Shown here piece after piece: positions 2,836 to 44,836 of a DNA stretch of 64,000 nucleotides. Position numbers and translations under genes: made by a program. Each line of letters begins with the position of its first letter. Position 1 is the stretch's first letter. A model generated the notes under the pieces. It searched no databases, had not been told where the DNA came from, and was given only the letters and a program-made list of their open reading frames with translations. The stretch is from an uncultured bacterium. GTDB lineage: Bacteria; Zixibacteria; MSB-5A5; CAIYYT01. The stretch lies in contig CAVSCK010000004.1 in NCBI GenBank assembly GCA_963726455.1, positions 896,001 to 960,000 on the forward strand. The letters run 5' to 3'.

Positions 2836-3591
2836 TCAGTTAACCGTCAAAACCACCACACCTTTTTCGGTGATGGCGATTGTGTTCTCCCAGTGAGCCG
2901 AGAGTTTGCGGTCGGCGGTCACTATCGTCCAGCCGTCCTCGAGTGTCTCGGTTTCGAAGGTTCCCGAATTTATCATCGGTTCGATGGCCAACACCATACC
3001 CGGCTGCAACACCGGGCCGTTACCGGCCACGCCGTAATTCGGAACCTGTGGTTCCTCGTGCATATTGCGTCCAATACCGTGTCCGACCAGGTCACGCACG
3101 ACCGAGAAACCGTTCTTTTCGGCGTGTTTCTGGATCGCAGCGGAAATATCGGACAACCTGCCATTCGGTTTGGCCGCGGCAATTCCGCGTTCGAGAGATT
3201 CTCTCACGACTTTGGTAATCTTCTTCTTCTCCTCGCTGACGTTGCCGACCAAAAAGGTCCGCGCCGCGTCGCCATGAAAACCGTTCTTGTAAACGCCGAT
3301 ATCGACGGATACCAAATCGCCGTCAGCGACCTTGCGCTTGCCGGGGATGCCATGCACGATCACTTCGTTGATCGAGATGCACGTCGATGCCGGGTAACCA
3401 CGATATCCGAGAAATGACGGCTCACCGCCCTCGCCCTTGATGAGATCGAACACTTGCCGGTCAATTTCGCGGGTTTCGATACCCGGTTCAATCATCTTTT
3501 CCACCATCTGCAACGCTCTGGCGACTATCCGACACGATTCGCCAATCTTCTCGAGCTCTGCCTTAGACTTTAGCTCGATCATTAGTTTCAA
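2836..3591 (-). CDS. map: Methionine aminopeptidase type I
   Basis: [45 protein letters not shown]; start may be ATG at 3582. Confidence 0.96.
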
Positions 3592-4237
3592 AAGAACCGA
3601 GGGATTCTAAAATCCTCGTCAAGACCTGATCGGCGGCGCCGTCGCCGTCAATCTGCAACAACAAACCCATACGGCTGTAATACTCTTCCAACGGCCGGGT
3701 CTGTTGGTGATACACGGTCAGTCTATTTCTCACGACCGCCTCCGAATCGTCGCTACGTCGGATCAGCGGCGAATCGTCGCGGTCACAAAAACCCGCACGT
3801 TTCGGCGGATTTGAAATGTCGTTATAGATCGTTCCACACACTCCGCAACTTGATCTGGCCGTCAGACGACGTATGATTGCTTCATTGTCCACGGCGAGAT
3901 TAACGACACGATCTATCGGGAATCCGACTGCTGCCATCAACTGATTCAGGCCTTCGGCCTGCGGCAGCGTACGCGGGAAACCATCAAAGATGAAACCCGC
4001 TCTCATGCCGTCGGTACCCAGCTTCTCTTTGATCGTGTCCAGAATCAGACTGTCTGGAACGAGCTTACCGGCATCCATGAACTCTTTGGCTTTGGTGCCC
4101 AGCGCCGTTCCCCGACGGACTTCGTCACGCAAAATGTCGCCCGTCGAGAGGTGCACCAGCCCGAGGCGTTCAGCAAGCAGCTTTGCTTGCGTACCTTTGC
4201 CGGAGCCGGGGGCACCGAGCAGAATAAGCCGTTTCAC
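3563..4237 (-). CDS. adk: Adenylate kinase
   Basis: P-loop GAPGSGKGTQ, HLSTGDILR, FDGFPRT, Cys-containing lid. Confidence 0.97.
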   Translation of the reverse strand: MKRLILLGAPGSGKGTQAKLLAERLGLVHLSTGDILRDEVRRGTALGTKAKEFMDAGKLVPDSLILDTIKEKLGTDGMRAGFIFDGFPRTLPQAEGLNQLMAAVGFPIDRVVNLAVDNEAIIRRLTARSSCGVCGTIYNDISNPPKRAGFCDRDDSPLIRRSDDSEAVVRNRLTVYHQQTRPLEEYYSRMGLLLQIDGDGAADQVLTRILESLGSFETNDRAKV

Positions 4238-33543: not shown

Positions 33544-34470
33544 CTATTTCAACTCTTCCGGCTTCTTCGCCAGATTGTTGACGACGTAGTCATATACTAT
33601 GAAAGTCTCATCACCGGCAGGCGATTGGATATAGTAAGTCTTGTTGTCCGTACCCTGTCCGGCAAAACGTAATGACTTCGCGCTGCCGTCCATCATGCTC
33701 ACATCAACCTCAACCGTCGGTTGCGCAAAATTCGGCCGCACTGTATCACCTTCTGCAACCGAGTTGTTCCACCGGACCACCGCCAACTGCCGCAGCATGT
33801 TTGACATCTTTCCGGGATTTGGTTTGAACGGATCACCCTTGGCTGGAATGATGCTCCACAGCGAATCCTGTCTGCCGATGCGATAGTCGAAATCCTTGCT
33901 CTTGAAAGCAATGGTCGCGATCTGGGCAGTGTCAATAGTCAGCAGCGTCTTGTCGCGGTAACCTGATGCCGGTCGATTGAGCAACCGCGCAAAACTACCC
34001 AGCGCTTCGTACACGTCCGGCGAATCCGGTTTGCGAACATAGGTCTTCTGGTAGTCGGCGCCCATCTTGCCGATGATCACCGACGCCAGCGGAGTTTGGT
34101 CGCGATAATACGTCACAGTGTTCCCCGAAATCGTGTCAACCTGAAACAGCATTTGCTTATCAGGATTCGAGCTGATCACCTCACCGACCGACATCGTGTG
34201 CGCCAGACTTGCCAGTTGTTGTACCGTGCCCGGCTCCGTCGAGAATGACTTTCCGCGATCCAGAACGTTCCACGCCTCGCCAACTTTCTCGAATTCCACC
34301 GAACTGCCCATCCGGTGCACCGAAATCTTGTTCACCATTCCCGAATCGACACCGAGAAAATTATTCTGTGCATTTTCCGAGAGCGCTTTCTTCTGGCTTT
34401 GTGACATCAACAGGTATAGCAGAACCAGCACCGCCAGAATGATAAGCGGGATCAATCGTGATCGATTCAT
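33544..34470 (-). CDS. DUF4340-like membrane-anchored protein
   Basis: N-terminal TM helix; two repeats with 'IGK...TYVRK...VY'; typical last gene of GldAFG-like ABC operons. Confidence 0.7.
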   Translation of the reverse strand: MNRSRLIPLIILAVLVLLYLLMSQSQKKALSENAQNNFLGVDSGMVNKISVHRMGSSVEFEKVGEAWNVLDRGKSFSTEPGTVQQLASLAHTMSVGEVISSNPDKQMLFQVDTISGNTVTYYRDQTPLASVIIGKMGADYQKTYVRKPDSPDVYEALGSFARLLNRPASGYRDKTLLTIDTAQIATIAFKSKDFDYRIGRQDSLWSIIPAKGDPFKPNPGKMSNMLRQLAVVRWNNSVAEGDTVRPNFAQPTVEVDVSMMDGSAKSLRFAGQGTDNKTYYIQSPAGDETFIVYDYVVNNLAKKPEELK

Positions 34471-36053
34471 ATCAACTGTCTCCTGCGATTTTGCTTGCGA
34501 ATCTGCCAGCGTGCGACACCGAACAATACCACCAGGAGGGGCATCAGGATGATGTTCATGAACTTCACGACGCCTCGCGTCGAGTCTTCGACAACTTTCA
34601 GCGGGCGGACACTGACGTCCTTCGATCTGATGGAAATCAGTCCCTCATCCTCAGAGAGCCAGTCGGTCATGTTCTGGAACATGATCAGATTCGATTGATC
34701 GCGCAGTACCTGATCCGAGACGAAATCTGCGTCACCCCAAACCACCACTCTCCCCTTGTCGCCCTGGTCCAGACGCGTGTCGAGTCCGGCGGTTCCCTGC
34801 GTAATGACCGTGTCCGGTTGCGGTTTCGGCTTGCCAGCAAAGAAGCTCTTGAAATTGCCGGTAATCGCGACTCCGAGCGGCAATCCCTGCTGATTGAAAT
34901 CGATCTTCGTCCATTGCCGGAACGGATCGATATTATAAGGAGGCACTTGGATTCCCGACTGCTTCGACGTACGCGCCAGAACTTCATAGTTCAGGCCGCT
35001 CGAACCGAAATGCGTCGTATCAATCGATGACGCATAAATCATATTCATCGACTGCAGGTCCTTGACGATCAGATTCTTCTTCGAGAAATCGGTGATCTTC
35101 GGGAAGAACGGATACTCGCGCAAACTCTGGAATCGGAATTGCCCCTGCTGCTGCTGGATTGCGATCTGCGAATTCTGAACATCGATCAGCATATTGTTGT
35201 TAACACCGACGCCGAGATTCGCAAGAAACGGATCCATTTGCGGATCGGCCGGAATCGCAGTGCCCTGCTGCACCTGCGCGTTGACCTTGTCGATCAGCAG
35301 CCCCAGTTTGCCGCCGCGCATCAGGAATTGGTCGAGCAGGTACAATTCATATTCGGAGAGCTTGGTCTTCGGACCGACGAGATACACCGTCTGGATGTCC
35401 GTCGGAATCTCATATAGCGTCCGCAGTTCCAGCGGCTCAACCTGGTACTCTTGCGACAAGACCTTGTTGATGTAGGTCAGATCCTTGTCGAGCGTCAACT
35501 CCCCGTCGCCGGTAACAAAACCGACCTTGGGAATCGAATGATGAACCAGCTTCTTGATGGCGCGCGTAATTTCGTATTCGAGGGTGGCGGTGTTTTGAAC
35601 AACGGGGATAACTTCCTTCTTATCCGCGAATAACACCGCCAGGCCCATATACACGTTCTTGATTTCCATCTTGTCGTGTGCCAGAGTCTGAATCGGCACC
35701 GCCGGTATACCATACCCGCGCGCCTCCTGCTCCTTGTTCTCTTTGACTGGATCGATGAACACGAAGTTCAGGTTCTTGCCGCCGTACGCCTCGTATTCAC
35801 CCAACTGATCCTTGAGGTAGCGCGCATTGGCGTTGTACGGCTGCGGTATGTCATCCGAGAAATAACACTTGATCGTTACGCGGTCATCCAGACTGCGCAT
35901 CAAATCCTTGGAGGATTGACTGAGCGAATAAATCTTTCCGGAGGTCATGTCGAGGCGACCGAACACATTTACGGAAAGCAGATTGAGAACCAGCAGGATC
36001 ACCAGGATGACAACTATCGAACTGATTCCGCCGATCGTGAGTTTCTTCTTCAT
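34467..36053 (-). CDS. GldG-like ABC transporter auxiliary component
   Basis: RLDMTSGKIYSLS, LEYEITRAI, GFVTGDGE, DQFLMRGG, LISIRSK, C-terminal TM helix. Confidence 0.85.
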   Translation of the reverse strand: MKKKLTIGGISSIVVILVILLVLNLLSVNVFGRLDMTSGKIYSLSQSSKDLMRSLDDRVTIKCYFSDDIPQPYNANARYLKDQLGEYEAYGGKNLNFVFIDPVKENKEQEARGYGIPAVPIQTLAHDKMEIKNVYMGLAVLFADKKEVIPVVQNTATLEYEITRAIKKLVHHSIPKVGFVTGDGELTLDKDLTYINKVLSQEYQVEPLELRTLYEIPTDIQTVYLVGPKTKLSEYELYLLDQFLMRGGKLGLLIDKVNAQVQQGTAIPADPQMDPFLANLGVGVNNNMLIDVQNSQIAIQQQQGQFRFQSLREYPFFPKITDFSKKNLIVKDLQSMNMIYASSIDTTHFGSSGLNYEVLARTSKQSGIQVPPYNIDPFRQWTKIDFNQQGLPLGVAITGNFKSFFAGKPKPQPDTVITQGTAGLDTRLDQGDKGRVVVWGDADFVSDQVLRDQSNLIMFQNMTDWLSEDEGLISIRSKDVSVRPLKVVEDSTRGVVKFMNIILMPLLVVLFGVARWQIRKQNRRRQLI

Positions 36054-36058
36054 CTCGC

Positions 36059-36769
36059 TTACCTCCACTTCCGTGATTCGGTCATCTTGATGGCCAGGTA
36101 CAAAAAGAAAAAGATCATCGAGAAGTAGTAGATCAGATCACGCGAATCAATCACCCCGCGCGAGATGTTGCTATAATGATAATCGATCGACAGATACTCG
36201 AAGAACGAAGCCAGCGTATCGGGCAGGAACGGCAGTATCTTATCGAGCATGAAGAATGCGAATATGATCACGAACCCCACGATGAATGCGATGATCTGAT
36301 TCGCCGACAAGCTCGACGTAAATAATCCGATCGACACATAAACGGCGCCCATCAATATCAAACCGAGGTAGCCGCCAAACGCCGCGCCGAAATCGGCGTT
36401 GCCCAGCGATGCAATCGTGAGATAGGCGACGAATGTCAGAATCACCGATATCGCCGTCAGCGCAAAGCCCGCGAGGAATTTTCCCACCACAATTTCACTG
36501 TCTTTCACTGGCAGTGTCACCAGTATCTCGATCGTACCGGCGCGTCTCTCTTCTGCCAGCAGGCGCATCGTGATTGCCGGAGCAAAAAGCATTAAAATAA
36601 AGGAAGAGATTCCGAACAAGCTCCGCAGATCAGCCGTGTTATTCACGAACAAAGTGCTGGCGAAGAAATAACCCGACACCAGCAGGAATAGTGTGATTAC
36701 GATATAGGCAACCGGCGAGTTGAAATAGGAGCGAATTTCGCGACGGAAGATCGTTAGCACGTTATTCAT
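36059..36769 (-). CDS. GldF-like ABC-2 permease
   Basis: REIRSYFNSPVAY, PAITMRLLAEERRAGTIE.L.T.P. Confidence 0.88.
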   Translation of the reverse strand: MNNVLTIFRREIRSYFNSPVAYIVITLFLLVSGYFFASTLFVNNTADLRSLFGISSFILMLFAPAITMRLLAEERRAGTIEILVTLPVKDSEIVVGKFLAGFALTAISVILTFVAYLTIASLGNADFGAAFGGYLGLILMGAVYVSIGLFTSSLSANQIIAFIVGFVIIFAFFMLDKILPFLPDTLASFFEYLSIDYHYSNISRGVIDSRDLIYYFSMIFFFLYLAIKMTESRKWR

Positions 36770-37700
36770 CGTGTCCTCCCTTGGTCAATTCGCGGAAGAC
36801 ATCTTCGAGACTCGACACTTCCTGTTTCATCTCCAGGAGCACCCAGCGATTTTCCACCACCTTATGGAAGATCGCCTCGCGCGGATCAACACCCTGGCGA
36901 CAGATCAACTCACATTTCGTGGTACCATGGTTCGGGTAGGCCTTGAGTTCCTCAACGCCGTCAATCGACATCAGCGCCCCGCGAATTGTGTCGGGATTCT
37001 GGTTGATCTCGATATTGACCACTGTCTTGCCGGTCAACGAATGCTGCAATGTTTCGGGAGTGCCGTTGGCCACGATCTTGCCGCGGTCAATAATCATCAC
37101 CTGATCGCAGGTGGCCTCAACTTCCGGCAGTATATGCGTGCAGAGGATAACCGTCTTCTGCCGCCCAAGCGTCTTGATCAAGTTTCTGATCTCGACTATC
37201 TGGTTTGGATCAAGGCCGACTGTCGGTTCATCCAGCACCAGAATTTCCGGGTTGTGAATCATCGCCTGCGCCAGGCCGACGCGTTGCCGGTAACCTTTGG
37301 ACAGTTCGCCGATACTTCTTGCGATGACATCTTCCAAACCGCACATTTCCACGACCTGTTTGATGCGCCGCCGGCGTTCCGATTTCAGGCCCCCGCGCAA
37401 CGACAGGATGTATTCGAGGTACTCGATCACGTCCATGTCGGGATAGAGAGGCGCCGACTCGGGCAGATAACCGATTTTCTTGCGCACTTCCATCGACTGC
37501 TCGACGACATCCAAACCGTCGATTGTCACCGCGCCCGAGGTCGGCGGCATGTAACAAGTGATGATGCGCACGCTAGTCGTCTTGCCCGCGCCATTCGGTC
37601 CCAGAAATCCCAATACCTGGCCGGTGGGAACTGAGAACGAGATGTCGTCGACAGCGACCGTTTCGCCGTACTTCTTGGTGAGATTTGTGACTTCAATCAC
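36762..37700 (-). CDS. GldA-like ABC ATP-binding protein
   Basis: Walker A GPNGAGKTT, LSKGYRQRVGLAQA, LDEPTVGLDPNQI. Confidence 0.92.
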   Translation of the reverse strand: MIEVTNLTKKYGETVAVDDISFSVPTGQVLGFLGPNGAGKTTSVRIITCYMPPTSGAVTIDGLDVVEQSMEVRKKIGYLPESAPLYPDMDVIEYLEYILSLRGGLKSERRRRIKQVVEMCGLEDVIARSIGELSKGYRQRVGLAQAMIHNPEILVLDEPTVGLDPNQIVEIRNLIKTLGRQKTVILCTHILPEVEATCDQVMIIDRGKIVANGTPETLQHSLTGKTVVNIEINQNPDTIRGALMSIDGVEELKAYPNHGTTKCELICRQGVDPREAIFHKVVENRWVLLEMKQEVSSLEDVFRELTKGGHDE

Positions 37701-37910: not shown

Positions 37911-39671
37911 TCAGAGTCGCAACTGTTTTTCCGCCAACTCGCGATAGAGGCACGACTTTTCCATGAGTTCCTGATGGCTCCCCTGGTCGATAATCGCCCC
38001 ATCCTTCAGAGTTAAAATTCGGTTGGCGCGTTGGACTGTTGCCAGGCGGTGCGCAATAATAATCGCCGTCTTGTCCACCAGTATCTTGTCCAGCGATTCC
38101 TGAATCAGTTGCTCGGATATCGAGTCGAGCGCGCTGGTCGCCTCGTCCAGAATCAAAATCGGAGGGTCTTTCAGCAGCGCCCGCGCCAGGCAAATACGCT
38201 GTTTTTCGCCGCCCGACAGAGTCACGCCCCGTTCGCCCACCGTACTTTCGTACCCATCCGGCAGTCCAGCGATAAAGTCGTGAATATTGGCGTTCCGGGC
38301 CGCGCGAATGACTTCCTCACGCGCCGCGTCTGGATTCGAGTAAGCGATATTCTCGGCGATCGTCGCCCTGAACAGCAGCGGATCCTGGTCTACCAGCGCA
38401 ATGTTGTCGCGCAGCGACTGCAGTGCAAGCTTGCGCAGGTCGACGTTGTCAATGCTGACGGTGCCCTGCTCGGGATCATAAAAACGCATGATCAGATTGA
38501 TTAACGTCGTCTTGCCGGAACCCGACGGCCCGACGATAGCGATTGTCTCGCCGGCATCAATATGCAAATTGAAGTGGTCGAACTTGAAGGCGCTGTCTGG
38601 GTACGTGAAGGTCACGTCCCGCATGTCGATTTCACCGTGCACCTTCGGAATTACAACCGGCTGCGGATCTTCTTCCACCGACGGCGGCATATCCAGGTAT
38701 TCGAAGACACGATCGACCGAGGCCATGGCCGCAGATATTTCCACTTTCGCAGACCCCAGAGATTGAACCGGACCGTATAGAAATGCCAGGTACATATAGA
38801 AAGCAAACAATTGACCGAGAAGCATTGATTTTCCGGCGACGAGATAGGAACCGAAACAGAGCACGATGATCGGCCCCAGATTCGTGACAATCATTACACC
38901 GTTGTATGCGATGGATCGAATCACACTGTACTTGACATAATATCCGGTCAATCCCGTCATAATCTGGTCGACTTTCTTGCGCTCTTCCTCTTCCTTGCCA
39001 AAGGCCTTGATAACCTTAAGCCCCACCAGCGACTCCTGAATACGCGCTGAAAGTTTCGCCACCGTTTCCTGCAGGCCACGTGCGGTGCGGTGAATCTTTC
39101 CGCCGAACAAGCTTGTCACCAATAGCGTAAGCGGCACGGGAATGATGGCAAACAGCGTCATCTGCCAGTTCAGGTACAGTATGTAGGCGAGCACTCCCAC
39201 CAGGAGGAGGATATTATTGATGATCGACAGCAACGTCGCCGCCAGCAAATCCTGAATGCGGGTCACGTCAGCCATGAACCGAGACATGACCTCACCGGTT
39301 TGCCGCTTCTGGTAAAAGCGCAATGACACGGTCTCCAGGTGCTTGAACAATTTCGAGCGAACGCCCGCGATAATGTTGGCGCCGATGTACCCGGCCAGAT
39401 AATCCCGCAGCCAGGAAAACAGGAATTGCGTCACGTAGATGCTGATCAGTATCAACGCAAAGCCGAGGATCGGCATGATATCAGGCTTCTGCCCTGCAGG
39501 AACTCGCCCGATAGCGGGAATGAGATCGTCGATTAGATATTCAAACGCGCGCGGGATCGCCAACACCAGAATATTGATGACAATCATCACGGCCAGCGTG
39601 ATCAATTCCAATGTCCAGTATGGTTTGAGGAACGGCCAGAGGCGTTTAGCTTTGCCGATATCGAGGATCAT
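37911..39671 (-). CDS. ABC exporter (fused TMD + NBD, no C39 peptidase domain), probable RiPP exporter
   Basis: Multi-TM domain, GPSGSGKTT, LSGGEKQR, ILDEATSALD; overlaps the end of the B12 radical SAM gene. Confidence 0.9.
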   Translation of the reverse strand: MILDIGKAKRLWPFLKPYWTLELITLAVMIVINILVLAIPRAFEYLIDDLIPAIGRVPAGQKPDIMPILGFALILISIYVTQFLFSWLRDYLAGYIGANIIAGVRSKLFKHLETVSLRFYQKRQTGEVMSRFMADVTRIQDLLAATLLSIINNILLLVGVLAYILYLNWQMTLFAIIPVPLTLLVTSLFGGKIHRTARGLQETVAKLSARIQESLVGLKVIKAFGKEEEERKKVDQIMTGLTGYYVKYSVIRSIAYNGVMIVTNLGPIIVLCFGSYLVAGKSMLLGQLFAFYMYLAFLYGPVQSLGSAKVEISAAMASVDRVFEYLDMPPSVEEDPQPVVIPKVHGEIDMRDVTFTYPDSAFKFDHFNLHIDAGETIAIVGPSGSGKTTLINLIMRFYDPEQGTVSIDNVDLRKLALQSLRDNIALVDQDPLLFRATIAENIAYSNPDAAREEVIRAARNANIHDFIAGLPDGYESTVGERGVTLSGGEKQRICLARALLKDPPILILDEATSALDSISEQLIQESLDKILVDKTAIIIAHRLATVQRANRILTLKDGAIIDQGSHQELMEKSCLYRELAEKQLRL

Positions 39672-41076
39672 TCTGCCAGTCCGGAAAATACTTATTGGCG
39701 GCAAATCGGAGCGCGCCTGGGGATAGCGTGTTTCTCATCGCTTGATCCCGCTGGGTCAACATCTCAAACCAAAGATCGGGATCGTTGGCAAGATCGTGCG
39801 ACGGAATATTGCGCCGGCAGTTTGTGTATTGATCTTCCTCCAGTTTCCACCAGTCGGGGCAGAGAATCTTGCTGCCGAATTGTTGCTCGAACCAGGCACT
39901 GTTGTAGTCCATCTCGCAGCCGGGGTAGTGCATATAGCCGAGACCGGCCCACATGAAAGTCGTTTCTTTGCGCTGCAATTCGGCGTCCATGAAGGCAAAT
40001 GTCTCATCAAGCGTTCGATGTGTCTCGCCGGGGTAATTAAAGATCATGTTTGCGCGGTGCAACACTCCGGCATCGGACAGCCGATGGCTGACCGTCTTGA
40101 CAATTTCGAGGTACTTTTCCGGCTGCTTAGTCTTCTTCATATAGCGTAGAATGTCGGGAGATCCGCTTTCAACACCCAATTCGATTTCCACCTTGAGTTT
40201 TGAGAACAGTGCAATATCCTCGGGATCAATATACTCCGGGCGAGTCTCGACAACAATCCAAAACTCCGGCTGCAGGTCGACGAGTCGGCGCAGGAATTCC
40301 TTGCGCCAGGCCGGACGCATCCCGAAACAGGCGTCACTTATTGCCACCGAGTAGAAATTGAATCGTTTGTAGGCGTCCAGAATATGCTTAATGGAATCCT
40401 CGGGACTATAGGCGCGCCATCGCCGATCTTTCAATCCCTCCATGCAGAATGCACAGTTAAACGGGCAGCCGCGCGACAGATACATATAGAAACTCTGCAC
40501 ACCTTCGGGTTTGTGTTCTGCCAGATGCTGTTCGAGCAGGTCGAGATTGAGCGGTACGAAGTGTTCGACGCCAAACATCGGCGCGTGCACAATCTTCGTT
40601 TCACTAGGACGGCCGTCGCGTTTGAGGTTGCCGGCAATTTCGCGGAGAATCAATTCGCCTTCGCCGCAAATCACGTAATCGAACAGCCGTTCTTCAGTCA
40701 GGAATTCATTGGGACGTGCCGAGGGATGATAGCCGCCGACTACAATCAGCTTATTGGGATACATTTCCCGGAAGATACGGGCGGTCTTCATGGTCGCCAG
40801 ATAAGATAAGCTGGTCCAGCAGGAAATGGCGAGAATGTCGCAGTCTTGTTTGGCGAAGAAGTCGCGGACTTTGCGTTCGTAGCGCTTGATCAAAGTCGGA
40901 CTGTTGGGCCGGCCGATCGAGTGCTCGAAATCGGCATAAGTAACAGGAAAGTATTGAGCCAGGTATGACGACAGCGTCAACTGTGACGCGCGAACATCGG
41001 GCTTGGCGATCCAATCAGGGTAATAGAAGCAGGATGGGTAAAGCACCAAAACCGACGGTGAAGTTGCAGCGGCCAA
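39646..41076 (-). CDS. Cobalamin-dependent radical SAM enzyme (class B, probable methyltransferase)
   Basis: B12-binding-domain motifs LIVVGGYHPS and DYVICGEGE; SRGCPFNCAFC; ELGVESGS. Confidence 0.88.
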   Translation of the reverse strand: MAAATSPSVLVLYPSCFYYPDWIAKPDVRASQLTLSSYLAQYFPVTYADFEHSIGRPNSPTLIKRYERKVRDFFAKQDCDILAISCWTSLSYLATMKTARIFREMYPNKLIVVGGYHPSARPNEFLTEERLFDYVICGEGELILREIAGNLKRDGRPSETKIVHAPMFGVEHFVPLNLDLLEQHLAEHKPEGVQSFYMYLSRGCPFNCAFCMEGLKDRRWRAYSPEDSIKHILDAYKRFNFYSVAISDACFGMRPAWRKEFLRRLVDLQPEFWIVVETRPEYIDPEDIALFSKLKVEIELGVESGSPDILRYMKKTKQPEKYLEIVKTVSHRLSDAGVLHRANMIFNYPGETHRTLDETFAFMDAELQRKETTFMWAGLGYMHYPGCEMDYNSAWFEQQFGSKILCPDWWKLEEDQYTNCRRNIPSHDLANDPDLWFEMLTQRDQAMRNTLSPGALRFAANKYFPDWQNDPRYRQS

Positions 41077-41081
41077 TCTAA

Positions 41082-42194
41082 CTAATGGCCTTCCGTTTGT
41101 GGCGGTTGGAACCTGGCCAGAAGTTGCGTGACAATCTCACTGTCCGGTGGCGCCGCGATGCCTTGTGCCTGCTCAATGCGGTACGTACAATACGGATTGT
41201 CCGCGCGGCAACCCGAGGCAGACACCGATGTTGTCGTGCAACCACCCCGGCACAGCGGCAGGTACTTGCAGTCGTGGCATGCGCCCGATGCAGTCTCGCG
41301 CGTAAACTTGCGGTTATATGCAAAGGCGTCCGGGTTATTCCAGATCTCCTTCAATGATTTCTCGCGAATGTTGCCTTCGACGAACTCCTCCTGCATGGAC
41401 AAGCATCCCTTGACGTTGCCGTTGGACTCAATCCCCACAACTCGCGTGCCGGCATAGCAACCCATATACACACCACCCTCCCAGAGTTTGGTCCCGAGTT
41501 GTCCGAAGTAGCCGATGTTTTCGCCGACGTCGAGATGCAGGCCGTTCTTACGTTCCTTGATTTCGATCAGCTTACTGATCATTTTCGGATAATCGGCAAG
41601 ACGCAGCACGAGTTCGTTGCTGTCTTTCATACGTCCGGTTGACGTGCAAAGCTGCACCCGCCATTCGGGACAACCGATGTCCACCAGAATATTATAGATG
41701 TCGTCAAGTTCTCCAAGGTTGATGTTAGACACTTGCGTCACGGCACAGAAATTGTGCCCCTTGCGCTTCGACAATTGCTTCAATGCACTCACGGCGCCCT
41801 TGAAACTGTCCTCGCGCTGTCGAATGTAATTGTGCGTCTTCTCGGTACCGTCGAAGCTGACTCCCACATTGGTCATCGGGACACTTGCCATATCGTTGGC
41901 TACCGCTTCTGTCAACAACAACCCGTTCGTTACCAATAGCGGCTTCATCTTACGCTCTTTGATCCGCTTGGCGAAAACCAGCCAATCCTCTCGCATCAGT
42001 GGTTCACCACCGGAGAGAGCGATATTGTCGGTGCCCATCTCTGCGAGTTCATCGATCAATTTTAGCCCCTCGTCGGTGGTCAGTTCGTCCGCTCTTCTCT
42101 TGCCGGCAGCCGTGCCGCAGTGAAGGCAGCGCATGTTGCAGGCGAAAGTTATTTCCCAGACGACTGCGTGGGGATAGAATTTGAACTCGGTCAT
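41082..42194 (-). CDS. Radical SAM/SPASM enzyme, PlpX/PcpX-like (putative tyramine-excising splicease)
   Basis: VVWEITFACNMRCLHCG..AG.RR.DELTT.E; GC.AG...GIE.NG.VKGC.S; C..C....LCRGGC; NPYC.YR. Confidence 0.8.
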   Translation of the reverse strand: MTEFKFYPHAVVWEITFACNMRCLHCGTAAGKRRADELTTDEGLKLIDELAEMGTDNIALSGGEPLMREDWLVFAKRIKERKMKPLLVTNGLLLTEAVANDMASVPMTNVGVSFDGTEKTHNYIRQREDSFKGAVSALKQLSKRKGHNFCAVTQVSNINLGELDDIYNILVDIGCPEWRVQLCTSTGRMKDSNELVLRLADYPKMISKLIEIKERKNGLHLDVGENIGYFGQLGTKLWEGGVYMGCYAGTRVVGIESNGNVKGCLSMQEEFVEGNIREKSLKEIWNNPDAFAYNRKFTRETASGACHDCKYLPLCRGGCTTTSVSASGCRADNPYCTYRIEQAQGIAAPPDSEIVTQLLARFQPPQTEGH

Positions 42195-43541
42195 GTCTTC
42201 TCCTTGGCTTTAGAAGTGGCTTGCTGCTGACGAGATCGCGCAATGATGTCAAGCATGGGTGTGAGATTATGCTTCCAACTCTGGCAGATTTCAGTGCCCT
42301 GCAATCCCCGGTCGACGCGCTGAGCCGGACAGCCACCCATGCAGAGCGGCAAGATGTCGCAACTCCTGCACTCGCTCGTCCTCGAACGGATCGAAACTGA
42401 ATAATCTGGTGAAATTGGGATGCTGAAAATCAATGTAGTTACGAATATTGCCCATCGATCTTTCCGGATCTCCGACATAATTCCAACAGCGGCAGATATT
42501 CCCCTCCGGATCGACGATAAAGCCGTTAATATGCTGGGCCATGCAATATATCGCGCTCGGACTCGGCAATTTCTGGACCGCAAATCCTTCGTCCAGCAAC
42601 TGGCGATAGAAACCGATTTCCACCTCGGAGAATTGCACGGTATCAAAGCATGTGTCAGCTATCGCGGCGCACGTCATTGATGACGGTTCAAGCTGGCCGA
42701 AGTAGACCGCTATTCGCTGCTGCAGTCCGGCCGCCTTAAGTTGCCCCAGCAATTCGGACATGGCCGCGAGGTCAACCGTCTTGTCAACGTTGACGCGGAC
42801 CGATATCATCATCTTGCTCGAAGCATATTTGACATTATCCAAAATCGTCTGGAACGAATCTTTGCCGTTCTTCAACGGCCGCCGCTGATTGTGCAGGCGC
42901 TCGGGACCATCGAGCGTGACCTGGCAAATCGAGACGTGCAGTTCCGCCAGTTTGTCCACCACATCCTTGGTCATTAGATATCCGTTGGTGACAATCGAAG
43001 ACGTGTAGGCGAACTGCTTCTCGCGCCCGAGATCGATCAGACTCTCCGCCAGATCCTCTATGATGTCCATCGCCAGTAGCGGTTCACCACCGTACCAATC
43101 CACATCAACCTTGTCGAGTGACTTTGCCTGCTTGTCGACGAAGCCGATGATGCCTTCCACGATCTCCGGGCTCATCTTGCCCTTCTTGTTGCCTTCGAAG
43201 CAATACGGGCAGGCCATATTGCAGGCCATTGTCGGGGCAATCACCAGTCCCAGCGTCCGTCGGTCGTAGCGCGTGCTTTGATGCAGAAATTTCAGCCATT
43301 GGACTTCATTCTCCGAATCAGGAAGCATGAACTTCCCAAATTCAAGCTGCTTCTGCAGTTCGGTCTCCGCGGCATTGAGTGTCGAAGTATCACCACCATT
43401 AGTGCTGCTGCTCGCCAGCCGCAGATACGTCTGGTAGTTTGCCTCTGTCATGAGAGCTAACGCGCCCGTGCGCGCATTAAACGCGATGTAGTACCCCTGT
43501 TGCCAGGGTCGAAAGAGGTTATAGAGGGAGACTTTACTCAT
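42191..43541 (-). CDS. Radical SAM/SPASM peptide maturase with an apparent frameshift near 42375
   Basis: IAPTMACNMACPYCFE, WYGGEPLL, QVTLDG; the SPASM tail ECRSCDILPLCMGGC lies in the shifted frame (ORF 42191-42646), whose stop overlaps the next ATG. Confidence 0.85.
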
Positions 43542-43834: not shown

Positions 43835-43864
43835 AAGAAAGAGGGAGGGGACTAAGCCCCTCCC
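43835..43864 (-). terminator. Intrinsic terminator after precursor A1
   Basis: GGGAGGGG/CCCCTCCC 8-bp stem followed by TCTTTCTT, 3 nt after the stop codon. Confidence 0.75.
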
Positions 43865-43867
43865 GAT

Positions 43868-43987
43868 TCATGTCCGACTCAGATAGGACTCGGGCTTAAT
43901 TCCGTAGCACGGATATACGACACCCTTGCACTTGAAGAACGTGCAAGCGTCGATGCCCGGGTTTTGTGGATCAATCAAATAGATCAT
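43868..43987 (-). CDS. RiPP precursor peptide A1, 39 aa: MIYLIDPQNPGIDACTFFKCKGVVYPCYGIKPESYLSRT
   Basis: Manual translation; AGGAGG RBS 5 nt upstream; paralog at 44439-44543; Cys residues and XYG motif; upstream of three radical SAM genes. Confidence 0.88.
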   Translation of the reverse strand: MIYLIDPQNPGIDACTFFKCKGVVYPCYGIKPESYLSRT

Positions 43988-44066: not shown

Positions 44067-44389
44067 CTATAACACTTACGCTCTGCCCGTTTCACGGGCA
44101 GGTACAGGATAGTTCCTCCGAGTGGCAGGCGGGTCAAACACCTGCTTTGGTTCACTAAACGTCTGGGAAGCGCGTCGATTTCATGCCGAAGACGACTCAG
44201 TACCGCTTACAAAGTATGATAAATTAAGGACTTCAACAATTGCTCGCCGCTATGATAGCATCTTTTGAATGTCAAAGTCAAGAGTTTTTGGAATGAAACA
44301 TTACCAAAAGTAACCGGATAATCGTTAAGACACACCAAACTTGCAGTCTGAACATTTGTCCGGCTTGATGGGAACGGCGAACAAGCAGT

Positions 44390-44421
44390 CGCGGCGCGGA
44401 GAACGTATCCTTCGCGCCGCG
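44390..44421 (-). terminator. GC-rich hairpin after precursor A2 (terminator or mRNA stabiliser)
   Basis: CGCGGCGCG/CGCGCCGCG 9-bp stem 17 nt downstream of the stop; weak U-tract. Confidence 0.55.
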
Positions 44422-44438: not shown

Positions 44439-44543
44439 CTAGGCCGGGTCCACTCCGTACATCGGATAGAACCTGGGACTGCACAGTTTCTTGAGCGTGC
44501 AACCGCTGATCGATGTGTCCTGGGGATCGATCAAATAAATCAT
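44439..44543 (-). CDS. RiPP precursor peptide A2, 34 aa: MIYLIDPQDTSISGCTLKKLCSPRFYPMYGVDPA
   Basis: Manual translation; AGGAGG RBS; first 8 residues identical to A1; shared CT..K and YPxYG motifs. Confidence 0.88.
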   Translation of the reverse strand: MIYLIDPQDTSISGCTLKKLCSPRFYPMYGVDPA

Positions 44544-44807: not shown

Positions 44808-44836
44808 ATATTACGATTTGCCCGCCCATTTGTCAA
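44808..44836 (-). promoter_or_regulatory. Sigma70-type promoter upstream of precursor A2
   Basis: TTGACA-N17-TAATAT on the minus strand. Confidence 0.6.

Follow-up and report, generated by a model that had tools for sequence, protein, structure and literature searches.

Spliceases place β-amino acids and reactive ketoamides in ribosomal peptides and proteins. They are under engineering for protein labelling and inhibitor discovery, where their chief limit is the need for a long leader or a helper protein. The locus described here raises the question of whether a radical SAM enzyme from the phylum Zixibacteria, encoded near two very short Cys-rich peptides, is a splicease that works with neither. 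It lies in a window of 64,000 nucleotides (the whole stretch of DNA that was analysed), in which a PlpX-like splicease and two precursors, A1 and A2, had been predicted.

A splicease-like radical SAM/SPASM enzyme

We characterized the splicease-like enzyme (370 amino acids; 41082..42194, minus strand) by ORF translation, Pfam and NCBIfam models, a tree and a complex prediction. The ORF and all motifs quoted in the original prediction are present in the translation: the radical SAM CxxxCxxC motif (..VVWEITFACNMRCLHCGTAAG.., with C19, C23 and C26), GCYAGTRVVGIESNGNVKGCLS, PLCRGGC and NPYCTYR. The enzyme also has a seven-Cys SPASM pattern (C246, C264, C306-x2-C309-x5-C315-x3-C319 and C336), and across 72 relatives each cysteine of the cluster motif and of this pattern is either invariant or conserved to at least 90%. 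Both Pfam domains scored above their cut-offs (PF04055 Radical_SAM, 81 bits versus 29.5; PF13186 SPASM, 46.3 bits versus 21.5), and the protein is a member of the radical SAM/SPASM superfamily.

The top NCBIfam score came from TIGR03913 (248.3 bits; cut-off 591.75), a family for which we saw no proof of splicease function. Second was TIGR04103 (rSAM_nif11_3; 242.3 bits, cut-off 725), which we take, in line with PGAP naming and gene context in Nostoc, to be the PlpX splicease family. TIGR04133 (rSAM with lipoprotein) reached 188.4 bits (cut-off 425), and the cofactor families NirJ2 (180 bits, cut-off 500), AhbD (168, 500), MftC (163, 265) and PqqE (83, 381) were likewise below threshold. Scoring against the three TIGR models had been proposed as a check on splicease identity, and its outcome was mixed: TIGR03913 and TIGR04103 outranked NirJ2, AhbD and MftC by 60–85 bits, and PqqE by far more, but all three stayed under their cut-offs. 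The claimed likeness to PlpX and PcpX survives in this ranking; however, at 242 bits against 725, and in a deep clade of its own, the enzyme does not belong to the family proper. NCBIfam labelling at E ≤ 1e-95 yielded matches for only 2 of 89 representatives, and exact look-up of 10 representatives returned generic names only. The closest relative in the PDB was SkfB (1e-14), and no solved splicease structure was found among the PDB relatives.

With NirJ2 and AhbD as detectable relatives, the gene could conceivably encode a housekeeping cofactor enzyme (of the NirJ/AhbC/AhbD heme pathway, or PqqE) with small ORFs as chance neighbours. We consider this extremely improbable and rejected it on scores and gene context: NirJ2 and AhbD fall far short of their cut-offs; heme d1, PQQ and mycofactocin genes are absent from the operon; orthologues are patchily distributed, with 64 of 201 Zixibacteria genomes encoding one; and their constant neighbours are the same peptide, radical SAM and exporter genes.

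Phylogenetic position

In the tree, the enzyme falls inside an 80-row ingroup (support 100) with PGAP-named TIGR04103 and TIGR03913 genes, set against MftC and an AhbD-like paralogue; the ingroup rows were picked by likeness to the query, PlpX, PcpX and RhaX are absent, and the outgroup is thin, consisting of one MftC and one paralogue whose long branches were flagged as meeting. The Zixibacteria sequences form a separate deep branch (12 rows, support 99) outside the clade of the TIGR04103 and TIGR03913 references and, because they are not nested in that clade, function is not transferable by orthology.

The PGAP-named references came from tblastn of plasmids. The Nostoc TIGR04103 gene, which carries the PGAP name 'nif11-class peptide radical SAM maturase 3', adjoins a Nif11 precursor ending in ..ALYGLPPELF and a 71-aa downstream ORF. 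No TIGR04103 member above the cut-off was found in the control genomes searched, and a locus search seeded with P0190 returned only 2 loci (deltaproteobacterial; Myxococcaceae MAG) and no cyanobacterial PlpX. Peptides with an XYG site also lie beside enzymes from other lineages of the same radiation, namely in Myxococcaceae (locus L107; LYG and SYG), in Azospirillum (DUF1843 peptides; PYG and AYG) and in Agathobacter (an unannotated ORF; MYG). Beside the Zixibacteria paralogues at L108 and L109, we saw no convincing short XYG peptide.

A separate deep branch and family scores that are all under cut-off would also fit an enzyme that acts at the P-x-Y-G site of the precursors by other radical chemistry and leaves the backbone intact. 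Such chemistry could be a Cys–Tyr or Cys–X thioether, a cyclophane-type C–C or C–O cross-link to the Tyr ring or an MftC-like Tyr transformation, and MftC, which also acts on Tyr, is detectable here. We judge this reading rather unlikely in view of the peptides themselves.

Precursor peptides and their conserved site

A2 (34 amino acids; 44439..44543, minus strand) begins with MIYLIDP, holds two Cys and ends in ..YPMYGVDPA. A1 (39 amino acids; 43868..43987, minus strand) has the same N-terminus, three Cys, a sequence that includes ..YPCYGIKPESYLSRT, the stretch P-C-Y-G-I-K-P, and an unusually long tail of 10 residues after YG. Both ORFs lie outside 41082..42194, both follow a ribosome-binding site (AGGAGG for A2, AGGAGG-type for A1), and both are represented in an 82-sequence alignment. 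As predicted, each carries XYG followed by a hydrophobic residue (PMYGV in A2, PCYGI in A1).

Upstream of the orthologous operon, 59 of 61 loci encode intact short peptides made up of MIYLIDP, a Cys-rich core and P-[L/M/C]-Y-G-[V/I]-[P/D]; given this recurrence of heptapeptide and site, A1 and A2 are more than chance ORFs. Precursor length ranges from 28 to 48 residues across loci, with a near-invariant heptapeptide and a variable core of 2–5 Cys, and a precursor may end a few bases before the next gene (for example, at L042). In 82 unique peptides, the Tyr and Gly of the site are invariant, and X is Leu in 63, Met in 10 and Cys in 9. Pro occupies position −2 in 80 of the peptides and Val or Ile position +1 in 77, while position +2 is Pro in 54 and Asp in 16. 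Exactly one YG is present in 81 of the 82; it is followed by 3–19 residues, in 80 cases as a short variable tail of 3–10, and Cys occurs C-terminal to it in 12.

Peptides this rich in Cys, some with Cys beyond the YG, would suit a cross-linking enzyme. Against such other chemistry at the site, the residues match known splice sites in detail (Leu or Met at X, Pro at both −2 and +2, and a hydrophobic +1 residue, as in PlpA tags and the Nostoc Nif11 precursor), and an invariant Gly after Tyr is a splice-site hallmark. A Cys-directed radical SAM enzyme is, moreover, already encoded next door in all 61 loci. MftC-like chemistry in particular was rejected on the position of the Tyr: MftC requires a C-terminal one (MftA ends in ..GVY), whereas here residues always extend beyond the YG.

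A1 and A2 gave zero model matches in Pfam and NCBIfam and are thus without a Nif11 or NHLP leader. Nor did we find a conserved separate Y/RRE-like gene, or any conserved small gene, in the 61 loci, in line with the prediction that both a Nif11 leader and a stand-alone PlpY/RRE gene would be absent. The string IYLIDP had no match in the literature searched, and a literature search returned nothing linking Zixibacteria with radical SAM RiPPs.

Operon layout and partner genes

Promoter-like sites lie upstream of A2 (TTGACA-17-TAATAT; 44808..44836, minus strand) and of A1 (TTGACT-18-TATCAT with TG; 44252..44281, minus strand), both from a consensus scan only, which found 4 sites against 1.9 expected in shuffles. 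Directly 3' of A2 is a G+C-rich hairpin (44390..44421, minus strand; −22.6 kcal/mol, z −2.04 versus shuffles) that the terminator scan did not call; directly 3' of A1, the scan found a terminator-like hairpin with a T-rich run (43843..43864, minus strand; −17.6 kcal/mol, z −2.48).

The operon has parts beyond those in the original prediction, namely an obligate Clo7bot/ranthipeptide-like radical SAM enzyme, a B12-binding radical SAM enzyme and an ABC exporter. The first, a partner radical SAM/SPASM maturase of the Clo7bot/Cys-rich-peptide type (42191..43541, minus strand), was assigned from NCBIfam, an orthologue alignment and ORF lengths; its scores are below cut-off for both TIGR04334 (299 bits versus 600) and TIGR04463 (261 bits versus 525). 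In this genome its gene is frameshifted near 42373. A 416-aa ORF covers 42291–43541, the final Cys motif of the SPASM domain runs on in another frame to a stop at 42191 that overlaps the ATG of the 370-aa enzyme gene, and partner orthologues of 446–503 amino acids align across the frame change; the full pathway may therefore be defective here. The two radical SAM genes are side by side in 61 of 61 loci examined, and in P0193 (938 amino acids) the two types are naturally fused. The partner probably uses the precursor cysteines. It could also take the Cys of the CYG site, which makes keto-β-Cys from A1 only a possibility.

The B12-binding radical SAM enzyme (476 amino acids; 39646..41076, minus strand), a probable C-methyltransferase by Pfam and NCBIfam, is encoded in 31 of the 61 loci, and we saw no link between its presence and the splice-site residues. 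The ABC exporter (597 amino acids; 37911..39704, minus strand; Pfam and NCBIfam) combines permease and ATPase without a peptidase domain and occurs in 53 of the 61.

A paralogous pair, in which the same Clo7bot-like enzyme accompanies an AhbD/NirJ-like second radical SAM enzyme, is present in 38 of the 201 genomes. Its peptides, recognised in 15 of 21 loci, end in ..LFLILPPW, and none in these 15 loci contains P-x-YG-[VILT]. Because this system keeps the Cys-directed enzyme and differs in both the second enzyme and the C-terminal motif, the YG site is tied to the 370-aa enzyme type. The same comparison speaks against a reading in which both radical SAM enzymes cross-link the Cys-rich core (by thioether or otherwise) and P-x-Y-G-V-P only marks the peptide for recognition or cleavage, as in follower removal or export. 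The position of the motif near the C-terminus, before a short variable tail, would agree with that role, and since the operon lacks a protease, host enzymes might conceivably read a processing signal; we nevertheless find it improbable, also in light of the contacts predicted for this part of the peptide.

Complex prediction for the enzyme and A2

The complex prediction for the 370-aa enzyme with A2 gave a median score of 0.66 against 0.01 for the best control. Of 157 solved complexes, 116 attain the score mark, as do 2 of 215 mismatched pairs; these counts are a rough guide here because our own alignments were used. Across runs, contact agreement was at least 36% and partner pLDDT at least 46, with the fold of A2 itself uncertain (below 50 in one run). 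Confident A2 contacts involve residues 1–7, 12 and 25–33, and so cover the two conserved motifs (1–7 and 27–33) and little besides; both motifs touch the enzyme in the predicted complex. Contacts on the enzyme side include the barrel strand ends (10, 12, 59, 86–88, 109–111, 150, 152, 179 and 181). Confident contact of A2 residues 25–33 with the enzyme, alongside contacts at these strand ends, argues against a site that serves only as a signal for other enzymes.

Proposed pathway and significance

Taken together, the family ranking, the conserved P-x-YG sites, the paralogue contrast and the controlled complex prediction lead us to conclude that the 370-aa protein is probably a stand-alone, Y-protein-independent tyramine splicease of a RiPP pathway widespread in Zixibacteria. 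Counting against it are family scores far under their cut-offs, the separate deep clade, the frameshifted partner gene in this genome and the predicted nature of the complex, a model that does not speak to catalysis. On this splicease reading, the enzyme would dock the heptapeptide MIYLIDP on its SPASM domain and C-terminal helix, and the P-x-Y-G stretch would be threaded into the radical SAM barrel. The adjacent Clo7bot-like enzyme would probably close thioether rings on the cysteines, the B12-binding enzyme, where encoded, may add methyl groups, and the product would leave via the ABC transporter. This product would be a small constrained ketoamide peptide, likely an inhibitor of Ser or Cys proteases; keto-β-Met, keto-β-Cys and protease inhibition are the outcomes that we infer.

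A bolder version, which we put forward tentatively and expect may not hold in full, is that of a minimal self-contained splicease in tandem, and in some cases fused, with a thioether-forming radical SAM enzyme. The pair would make thioether-bridged ketoamide mini-inhibitors shorter than 50 residues, an undescribed keto-β-cysteine variant among them, with MIYLIDP read by the SPASM domain and a built-in C-terminal helix (residues ~352–363), and such systems would be widespread in an uncultured phylum. Richter et al. reportedly had to fuse an activating helix onto RhaX and PlpX, and the C-terminal helix proposed here would be its natural counterpart.

If true, the system would be attractive as a minimal one: the splicease would accept a substrate of about 30–40 residues that bears a tag of seven, and at least 82 natural substrate variants are on offer. 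Zixibacteria would then have a conserved, secreted and probably protease-inhibiting peptide family, in which tyramine splicing, Cys cross-linking and sometimes B12-dependent methylation are combined on one tiny scaffold as a new mix of known chemistries.

Comparison with known systems

We take PlpX/PlpY with PlpA (Pleurocapsa) to be the type I spliceotide pathway, and RhaX/RasX/RcsX (Rheinheimera) to be the binary, type II pathway. The Zixibacteria system resembles type I in its radical SAM/SPASM enzyme, in its X-Tyr-Gly site, where X is Leu or Met, Pro directly precedes X and the Gly is followed by a hydrophobic residue and Pro, and in the ketoamide product expected. Reports on the prototype splicease likewise give Leu and Met as native X residues (PMC10533398, PMC9811515), and the consensus ..IKPLYGVP.. 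is close to the PlpA-derived splice tag ..PIRPLYGLPI in Table 1 of PMC10533398. In contrast to PlpX/PlpY, the precursors are 28–48 residues long and Cys-rich, with a 7-residue N-terminal motif in place of a Nif11 or NHLP leader, and the system has no Y protein gene and always a Clo7bot-like radical SAM enzyme. The Nostoc TIGR04103 locus, with its Nif11 leader and small Y-type gene, differs from the Zixibacteria loci in the same two respects.

Binary spliceotide pathways without a Y protein have already been described (PMC11414181), so its absence here is not new in itself, and AlphaFold models place XYG in the splicease active site (PMC11414181). The Rheinheimera enzymes are reported to act on short substrates that contain two Cys and an MYG or LYG site, and their products inhibit Ser and Cys proteases (PMC11626197, PMC11414181). 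The Zixibacteria system shares with them the lack of a Y protein, the MYG/LYG sites and Cys in short peptides, a likeness drawn from descriptions rather than sequences. However, the Rheinheimera leaders contain an activating α-helix and a core of ~25 residues is needed, whereas the whole Zixibacteria precursor has 28–48 residues and a 7-residue, strand-like leader; the Rheinheimera Cys, moreover, are reported to form a disulfide and are not targets of a second radical SAM enzyme.

TIGR03913, the top-scoring model for the 370-aa enzyme, describes a 'GDL motif peptide-associated radical SAM/SPASM maturase' found with DUF1843 peptides in Azospirillum and Aureibacter. These peptides also have X-Y-G near the N-terminus (2 of 2 in Azospirillum, 1 of 3 in Aureibacter), but they are helical domains without a Cys-rich core and unrelated to A1 and A2, and their enzymes are longer at the C-terminus (474–516 amino acids versus 370). 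The partner enzyme resembles Clo7bot/Cys-rich-peptide maturases (TIGR04334 and TIGR04463; the CefB and PapB ranthipeptide type) in adjoining Cys-rich peptides. Unlike them, it is frameshifted in this genome and coupled to a splicease-like enzyme, to the point of fusion in P0193.

The enzyme and its operon

The gene at window positions 41082–42194 on the minus strand is an intact ORF encoding a 370-aa protein, and every motif that the original prediction had quoted for the enzyme was found in this frame. Its radical SAM motif (C19-x3-C23-x2-C26) sits at the extreme N-terminus, so the protein has no N-terminal RRE domain. The seven-Cys SPASM pattern is complete, and both Pfam matches, Radical_SAM (81 bits) and SPASM (46.3 bits), exceed their thresholds.

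The enzyme belongs to an operon that runs, entirely on the minus strand, in the order A2, A1, second radical SAM, 370-aa enzyme, B12-binding radical SAM, ABC exporter. The two very short precursors of the original prediction proved to be real ORFs, upstream of the enzyme and on its strand: A2 (44439–44543, 34 aa) ends in ..YPMYGVDPA, and A1 (43868–43987, 39 aa) contains ..YPCYGIKPESYLSRT. Each is preceded by a promoter-like site and an AGGAGG-type ribosome-binding site and followed by a stable hairpin; promoters and terminators were called by consensus match only. The B12-binding radical SAM gene (39646–41076) and an ABC exporter that lacks a peptidase domain (37911–39704) follow the enzyme; there is no protease gene among the operon genes. 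The genes just downstream of the exporter, at 34467–37700 on the same strand, encode a 312-aa ABC ATPase, a 236-aa ABC-2 permease and a membrane protein of 533 aa; one same-genus locus (L038) also has a similar ATPase after its operon, and more distant loci do not.

The second radical SAM/SPASM gene (42191–43541) was best matched by TIGR04334, ‘Clo7bot peptide maturase’ (299 bits, cut-off 600), followed by TIGR04463 ‘rSAM_vs_C_rich’ (261 bits), CefB ‘Cys-every-fifth’ (208 bits) and the PapB ranthipeptide maturase (116 bits). Enzymes of these types are of the cysteine cross-linking kind. The protein carries an N-terminal extension of ~100 residues ahead of its cluster motif. In this genome the gene is frameshifted near 42373, through mutation or assembly error, at a site that is not a homopolymer run. 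Its orthologues are single ORFs of 446–503 aa, which align in one frame up to ..DPFEDE; beyond the break, the last SPASM motif (C-x2-C-x5-C-x3-C) and the C-terminus align in a different frame, whose stop codon overlaps the ATG of the 370-aa gene. Given the frameshift, this cell may make a spliced, un-cross-linked peptide or nothing useful.

Relationship to curated maturase families

The original prediction had named TIGR04103 (nif11-class maturase 3), TIGR03913 and TIGR04133 as families to score the enzyme against. These were indeed its top-ranked NCBIfam families (TIGR03913, 248 bits against a cut-off of 592; TIGR04103, 242 against 725; TIGR04133, 188 against 425), ahead of NirJ2 (180 against 500), AhbD (168 against 500), MftC (163 against 265) and PqqE (83 against 381), but with all scores below cut-off it is a member of none. 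A representative library clustered at 50% identity held 645 relatives at E ≤ 1e-30. The nearest full-length representatives are 40–44% identical to the enzyme, apart from one at 60% from its own family. Among ten representatives scanned, TIGR04103 or TIGR03913 was the best model for eight, never above cut-off; the exceptions were P0264, which is TIGR04133-like, and P0193, whose best model matched a fused Clo7bot part. P0193 (938 aa) is a natural fusion of both enzyme types, with a splicease-like N-terminal part (~4–340) and a Clo7bot-like C-terminal part (~500–930). Further two-domain proteins with a splicease-like part are P0122, P0203, P0264 and P0265.

We built a quick maximum-likelihood tree of 82 rows, comprising the window protein, 11 members of its family, 60 representatives (the first 60 of 320–480 aa, with longer and shorter ones and the remaining family members excluded) and 10 labelled sequences; the reference enzymes were PGAP-named homologues from tblastn of plasmids, not experimentally characterised spliceases. 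The outgroup side (support 100) consisted of MftC and an AhbD-like paralogue encoded in the same genome as the window protein. The other 80 rows formed an ingroup with three lineages at its unresolved base: the 12-row Zixibacteria clade to which the 370-aa enzyme belongs (support 99), a small group resembling TIGR04133, and a clade of 65 rows (support 92) that includes, as a nested group of six (support 100), the TIGR04103 and TIGR03913 references. The enzyme is a separate deep branch within the radiation common to these references, in a tree whose ingroup was picked for likeness to the query and whose thin outgroup has flagged long branches.

Other loci of this radiation also carry XYG-containing peptides. 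The ‘nif11-class peptide radical SAM maturase 3’ of Nostoc sp. C057 is flanked by a Nif11 precursor with the C-terminus ..IALYGLPPELF and by a 71-aa ORF that occupies the position of a Y protein, the PlpY-type helper. The ‘GDL motif peptide-associated’ maturase of Azospirillum adjoins two DUF1843 peptides holding PYG and AYG. On an Agathobacter rectalis plasmid (NZ_CP143948.1), a splicease-like homologue named ‘radical SAM protein’ (2980–4134) adjoins an MFS transporter and has, about 400 bases upstream, an unannotated 35-aa ORF ending ..GPVMYGTGVRM; this human gut Firmicute may have a spliceotide locus. On a Myxococcaceae MAG contig (L107), a 107-aa Cys-rich ORF with ALYGAP and SYGAD (1374–1697) lies directly upstream of a TIGR04103-like radical SAM gene (434 bits, under the cut-off).

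Conservation of the locus and its precursors

All named homologues of the enzyme come from Zixibacteria MAGs. Orthologues (E ≤ 1e-60) were found in 64 of 201 genomes of the phylum and in 14 of 16 of the window's own family; the gene is common but patchy, as expected for a secondary-metabolite gene. We compared 61 loci (60 fetched and the window). The Clo7bot-like gene was directly upstream of the 370-aa gene in every one, often with overlapping stop and start codons. An ABC exporter was present in at least 53 and a B12-binding radical SAM gene in at least 31, both lower bounds because contig ends cut some loci. One locus (L056, G155:C27, 6971–12716) has the whole module in tandem, with precursor, Clo7bot-like and splicease-like genes twice and a peptide for each copy. 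Another (L044, G190:C14, 5456–7004) is a decaying operon copy, with the partner in two ORFs and a sole precursor truncated after 20 residues, before any YG.

A strict N-terminal heptapeptide pattern recovered peptides in 51 of the 61 loci, in L044 the truncated one only, and yielded 88 YG peptides across 50 loci, 82 of them unique. A looser search of short frames on the operon strand for P/A-x-YG-[VILT] found peptides in nine of the ten remaining loci, with N-terminal variants including MIYLIEP and MLFLIEP; at L043 neither search recovered a precursor. At least one intact precursor was thus present in 59 of 61 loci. The 82 unique peptides are 28–48 aa long. No variation occurs at M1, L4, P7, Tyr or Gly, and conservation is at least 90% at Y3, at D6, at the first Cys and at the Pro in position -2 from Tyr. 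Tyr is preceded by Leu (63), Met (10) or Cys (9); Gly is followed by Val (42), Ile (35), Leu (3) or Thr (2), and then commonly by Pro (54), Asp (16) or Ile (6). Exactly one YG occurs in 81 of 82. The peptides hold one to five Cys, with at least two in 81, and 12 have a Cys after YG. Between the two conserved ends they are highly variable (mean column identity 24%), as is usual for a RiPP core between recognition and modification sites. In two loci (L068, G141:C11, 1600–2250; L072, G087:C1, 7619–8384), P-L-Y-G is in the middle of the peptide, ahead of another Cys-rich tail (as in ..VPLYGIPPEPCYTVCAVLCILRP); these variants may have core on both sides of the splice site.

The window's own genome encodes a second radical SAM pair outside the window (contig 1, locus L110, 5445–8702): a Clo7bot-like enzyme (453 aa, 342 bits to TIGR04334) and a 344-aa radical SAM/SPASM protein for which AhbD, NirJ and MftC score best and TIGR03913 gives only 109 bits. 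Of the 201 genomes of the phylum, 38 have a pair of this type, with the genes adjacent in 21 of 21 loci. The three small ORFs at L110 itself follow the pattern M-K/R-F-I-E-Q-P, two Cys, then Y-Y-P-I-S-P or F-P-I-L-P-P-W, and by inspection we recognised peptides of the form M-K/R-F-I-E-Q-P .. C-P-C-Y-K .. L-F-L-I-L-P-P-W at 15 of the 21 loci. P-x-YG-[VILT] was absent from all peptides recognised at these 15 loci; one peptide has a YG dipeptide, in the context C-Y-G-K. The YG site therefore goes with the splicease-like enzyme and not with the Cys-directed one, a contrast that is qualitative rather than statistical because related genomes are not independent. The L110-type system looks like an undescribed RiPP family.

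Predicted complex of the enzyme and A2

The enzyme (72-row alignment) was folded with A2 (82-row alignment) in three runs with three controls. The complex scored 0.58, 0.66 and 0.68 (median 0.66; best control 0.01). Among solved complexes 116 of 157 attain the score mark, against 2 of 215 mismatched pairs; these counts are only rough here because own alignments were used. At least 36% of contacts agreed across runs, and the pLDDT of the peptide chain was at least 46, falling below 50 in one run. The score is unlikely to reflect a solved complex already known to the model, as there is no splicease structure in the PDB (best sequence match SkfB, 1e-14).

Confident contacts involve A2 residues 1–7 (MIYLIDP), 12 and 25–33 (F-Y-P-M-Y-G-V-D-P), which are both conserved motifs and little else. 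The lowest-error pairs join A2 2–7 to enzyme residues 294–299 and 312–316 in the SPASM domain, 244, 250 and 354–362; the i, i+3/4 spacing of the last group points to a single face of a C-terminal helix. The remaining enzyme contacts (10, 12, 59, 86–88, 109–111, 150, 152, 179, 181 and 225) would, by the canonical radical SAM fold, be the C-terminal ends of barrel strands around the SAM cluster, and by elimination the Y-G stretch would be the part inside the barrel. The result is one of model confidence, not a measurement. It agrees with AlphaFold models of known spliceases, which, according to Richter et al., put XYG in the active centre (PMC11414181).

Proposed pathway and comparison with known spliceotides

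We infer that the precursor is translated as a 28–48-aa peptide whose MIYLIDP would dock on the 370-aa enzyme, with P-x-Y-G entering the barrel. A radical reaction would cut out a tyramine equivalent and rejoin the backbone, leaving an alpha-keto-beta-Leu, -Met or possibly -Cys residue. The Clo7bot-like partner would cross-link Cys, the optional B12-binding radical SAM enzyme would add methyl groups, and the ABC transporter would export the product. Rheinheimera peptides are reported to inhibit elastase, chymotrypsin and cathepsin B when spliced and to be inactive when unspliced (PMC11626197). Protease inhibition would suit a Pro-Leu/Met-ketoamide constrained in a loop by Cys. We consider it reasonably probable that the enzyme is a splicease. 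The original prediction was largely right on function; its strict family membership was wrong and its account of the operon incomplete. The enzyme is of interest mainly as a candidate for a minimal splicease.

Spliceotides are already established as a RiPP class. According to papers citing it, a 2022 survey covered 27 characterised and 939 predicted splicease systems and reported that diverse bacteria have binary pathways lacking a Y protein; the missing PlpY or Nif11 leader is therefore not new, and the Zixibacteria type may already be among the survey's predictions. Our literature search found no paper on Zixibacteria with radical SAM and RiPP, and none with the precursor peptide motif. MYG and LYG are the sites on which the prototype PlpXY acts (PMC10533398, PMC9811515), and the PlpA-derived splice tags in Table 1 of PMC10533398 read ..PIRPLYGLPI; the Zixibacteria consensus ..IKPLYGVP.. 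shares with this tag the Pro(-2), Leu, Tyr, Gly, hydrophobic residue and Pro. The Zixibacteria systems differ from the spliceotide systems in the literature consulted in their extremely short precursor with a 7-residue N-terminal tag, in an obligate and sometimes fused Cys-directed radical SAM partner and the frequent B12-binding radical SAM enzyme, in an enzyme clade of its own that no curated model fits, and in their spread in Zixibacteria.
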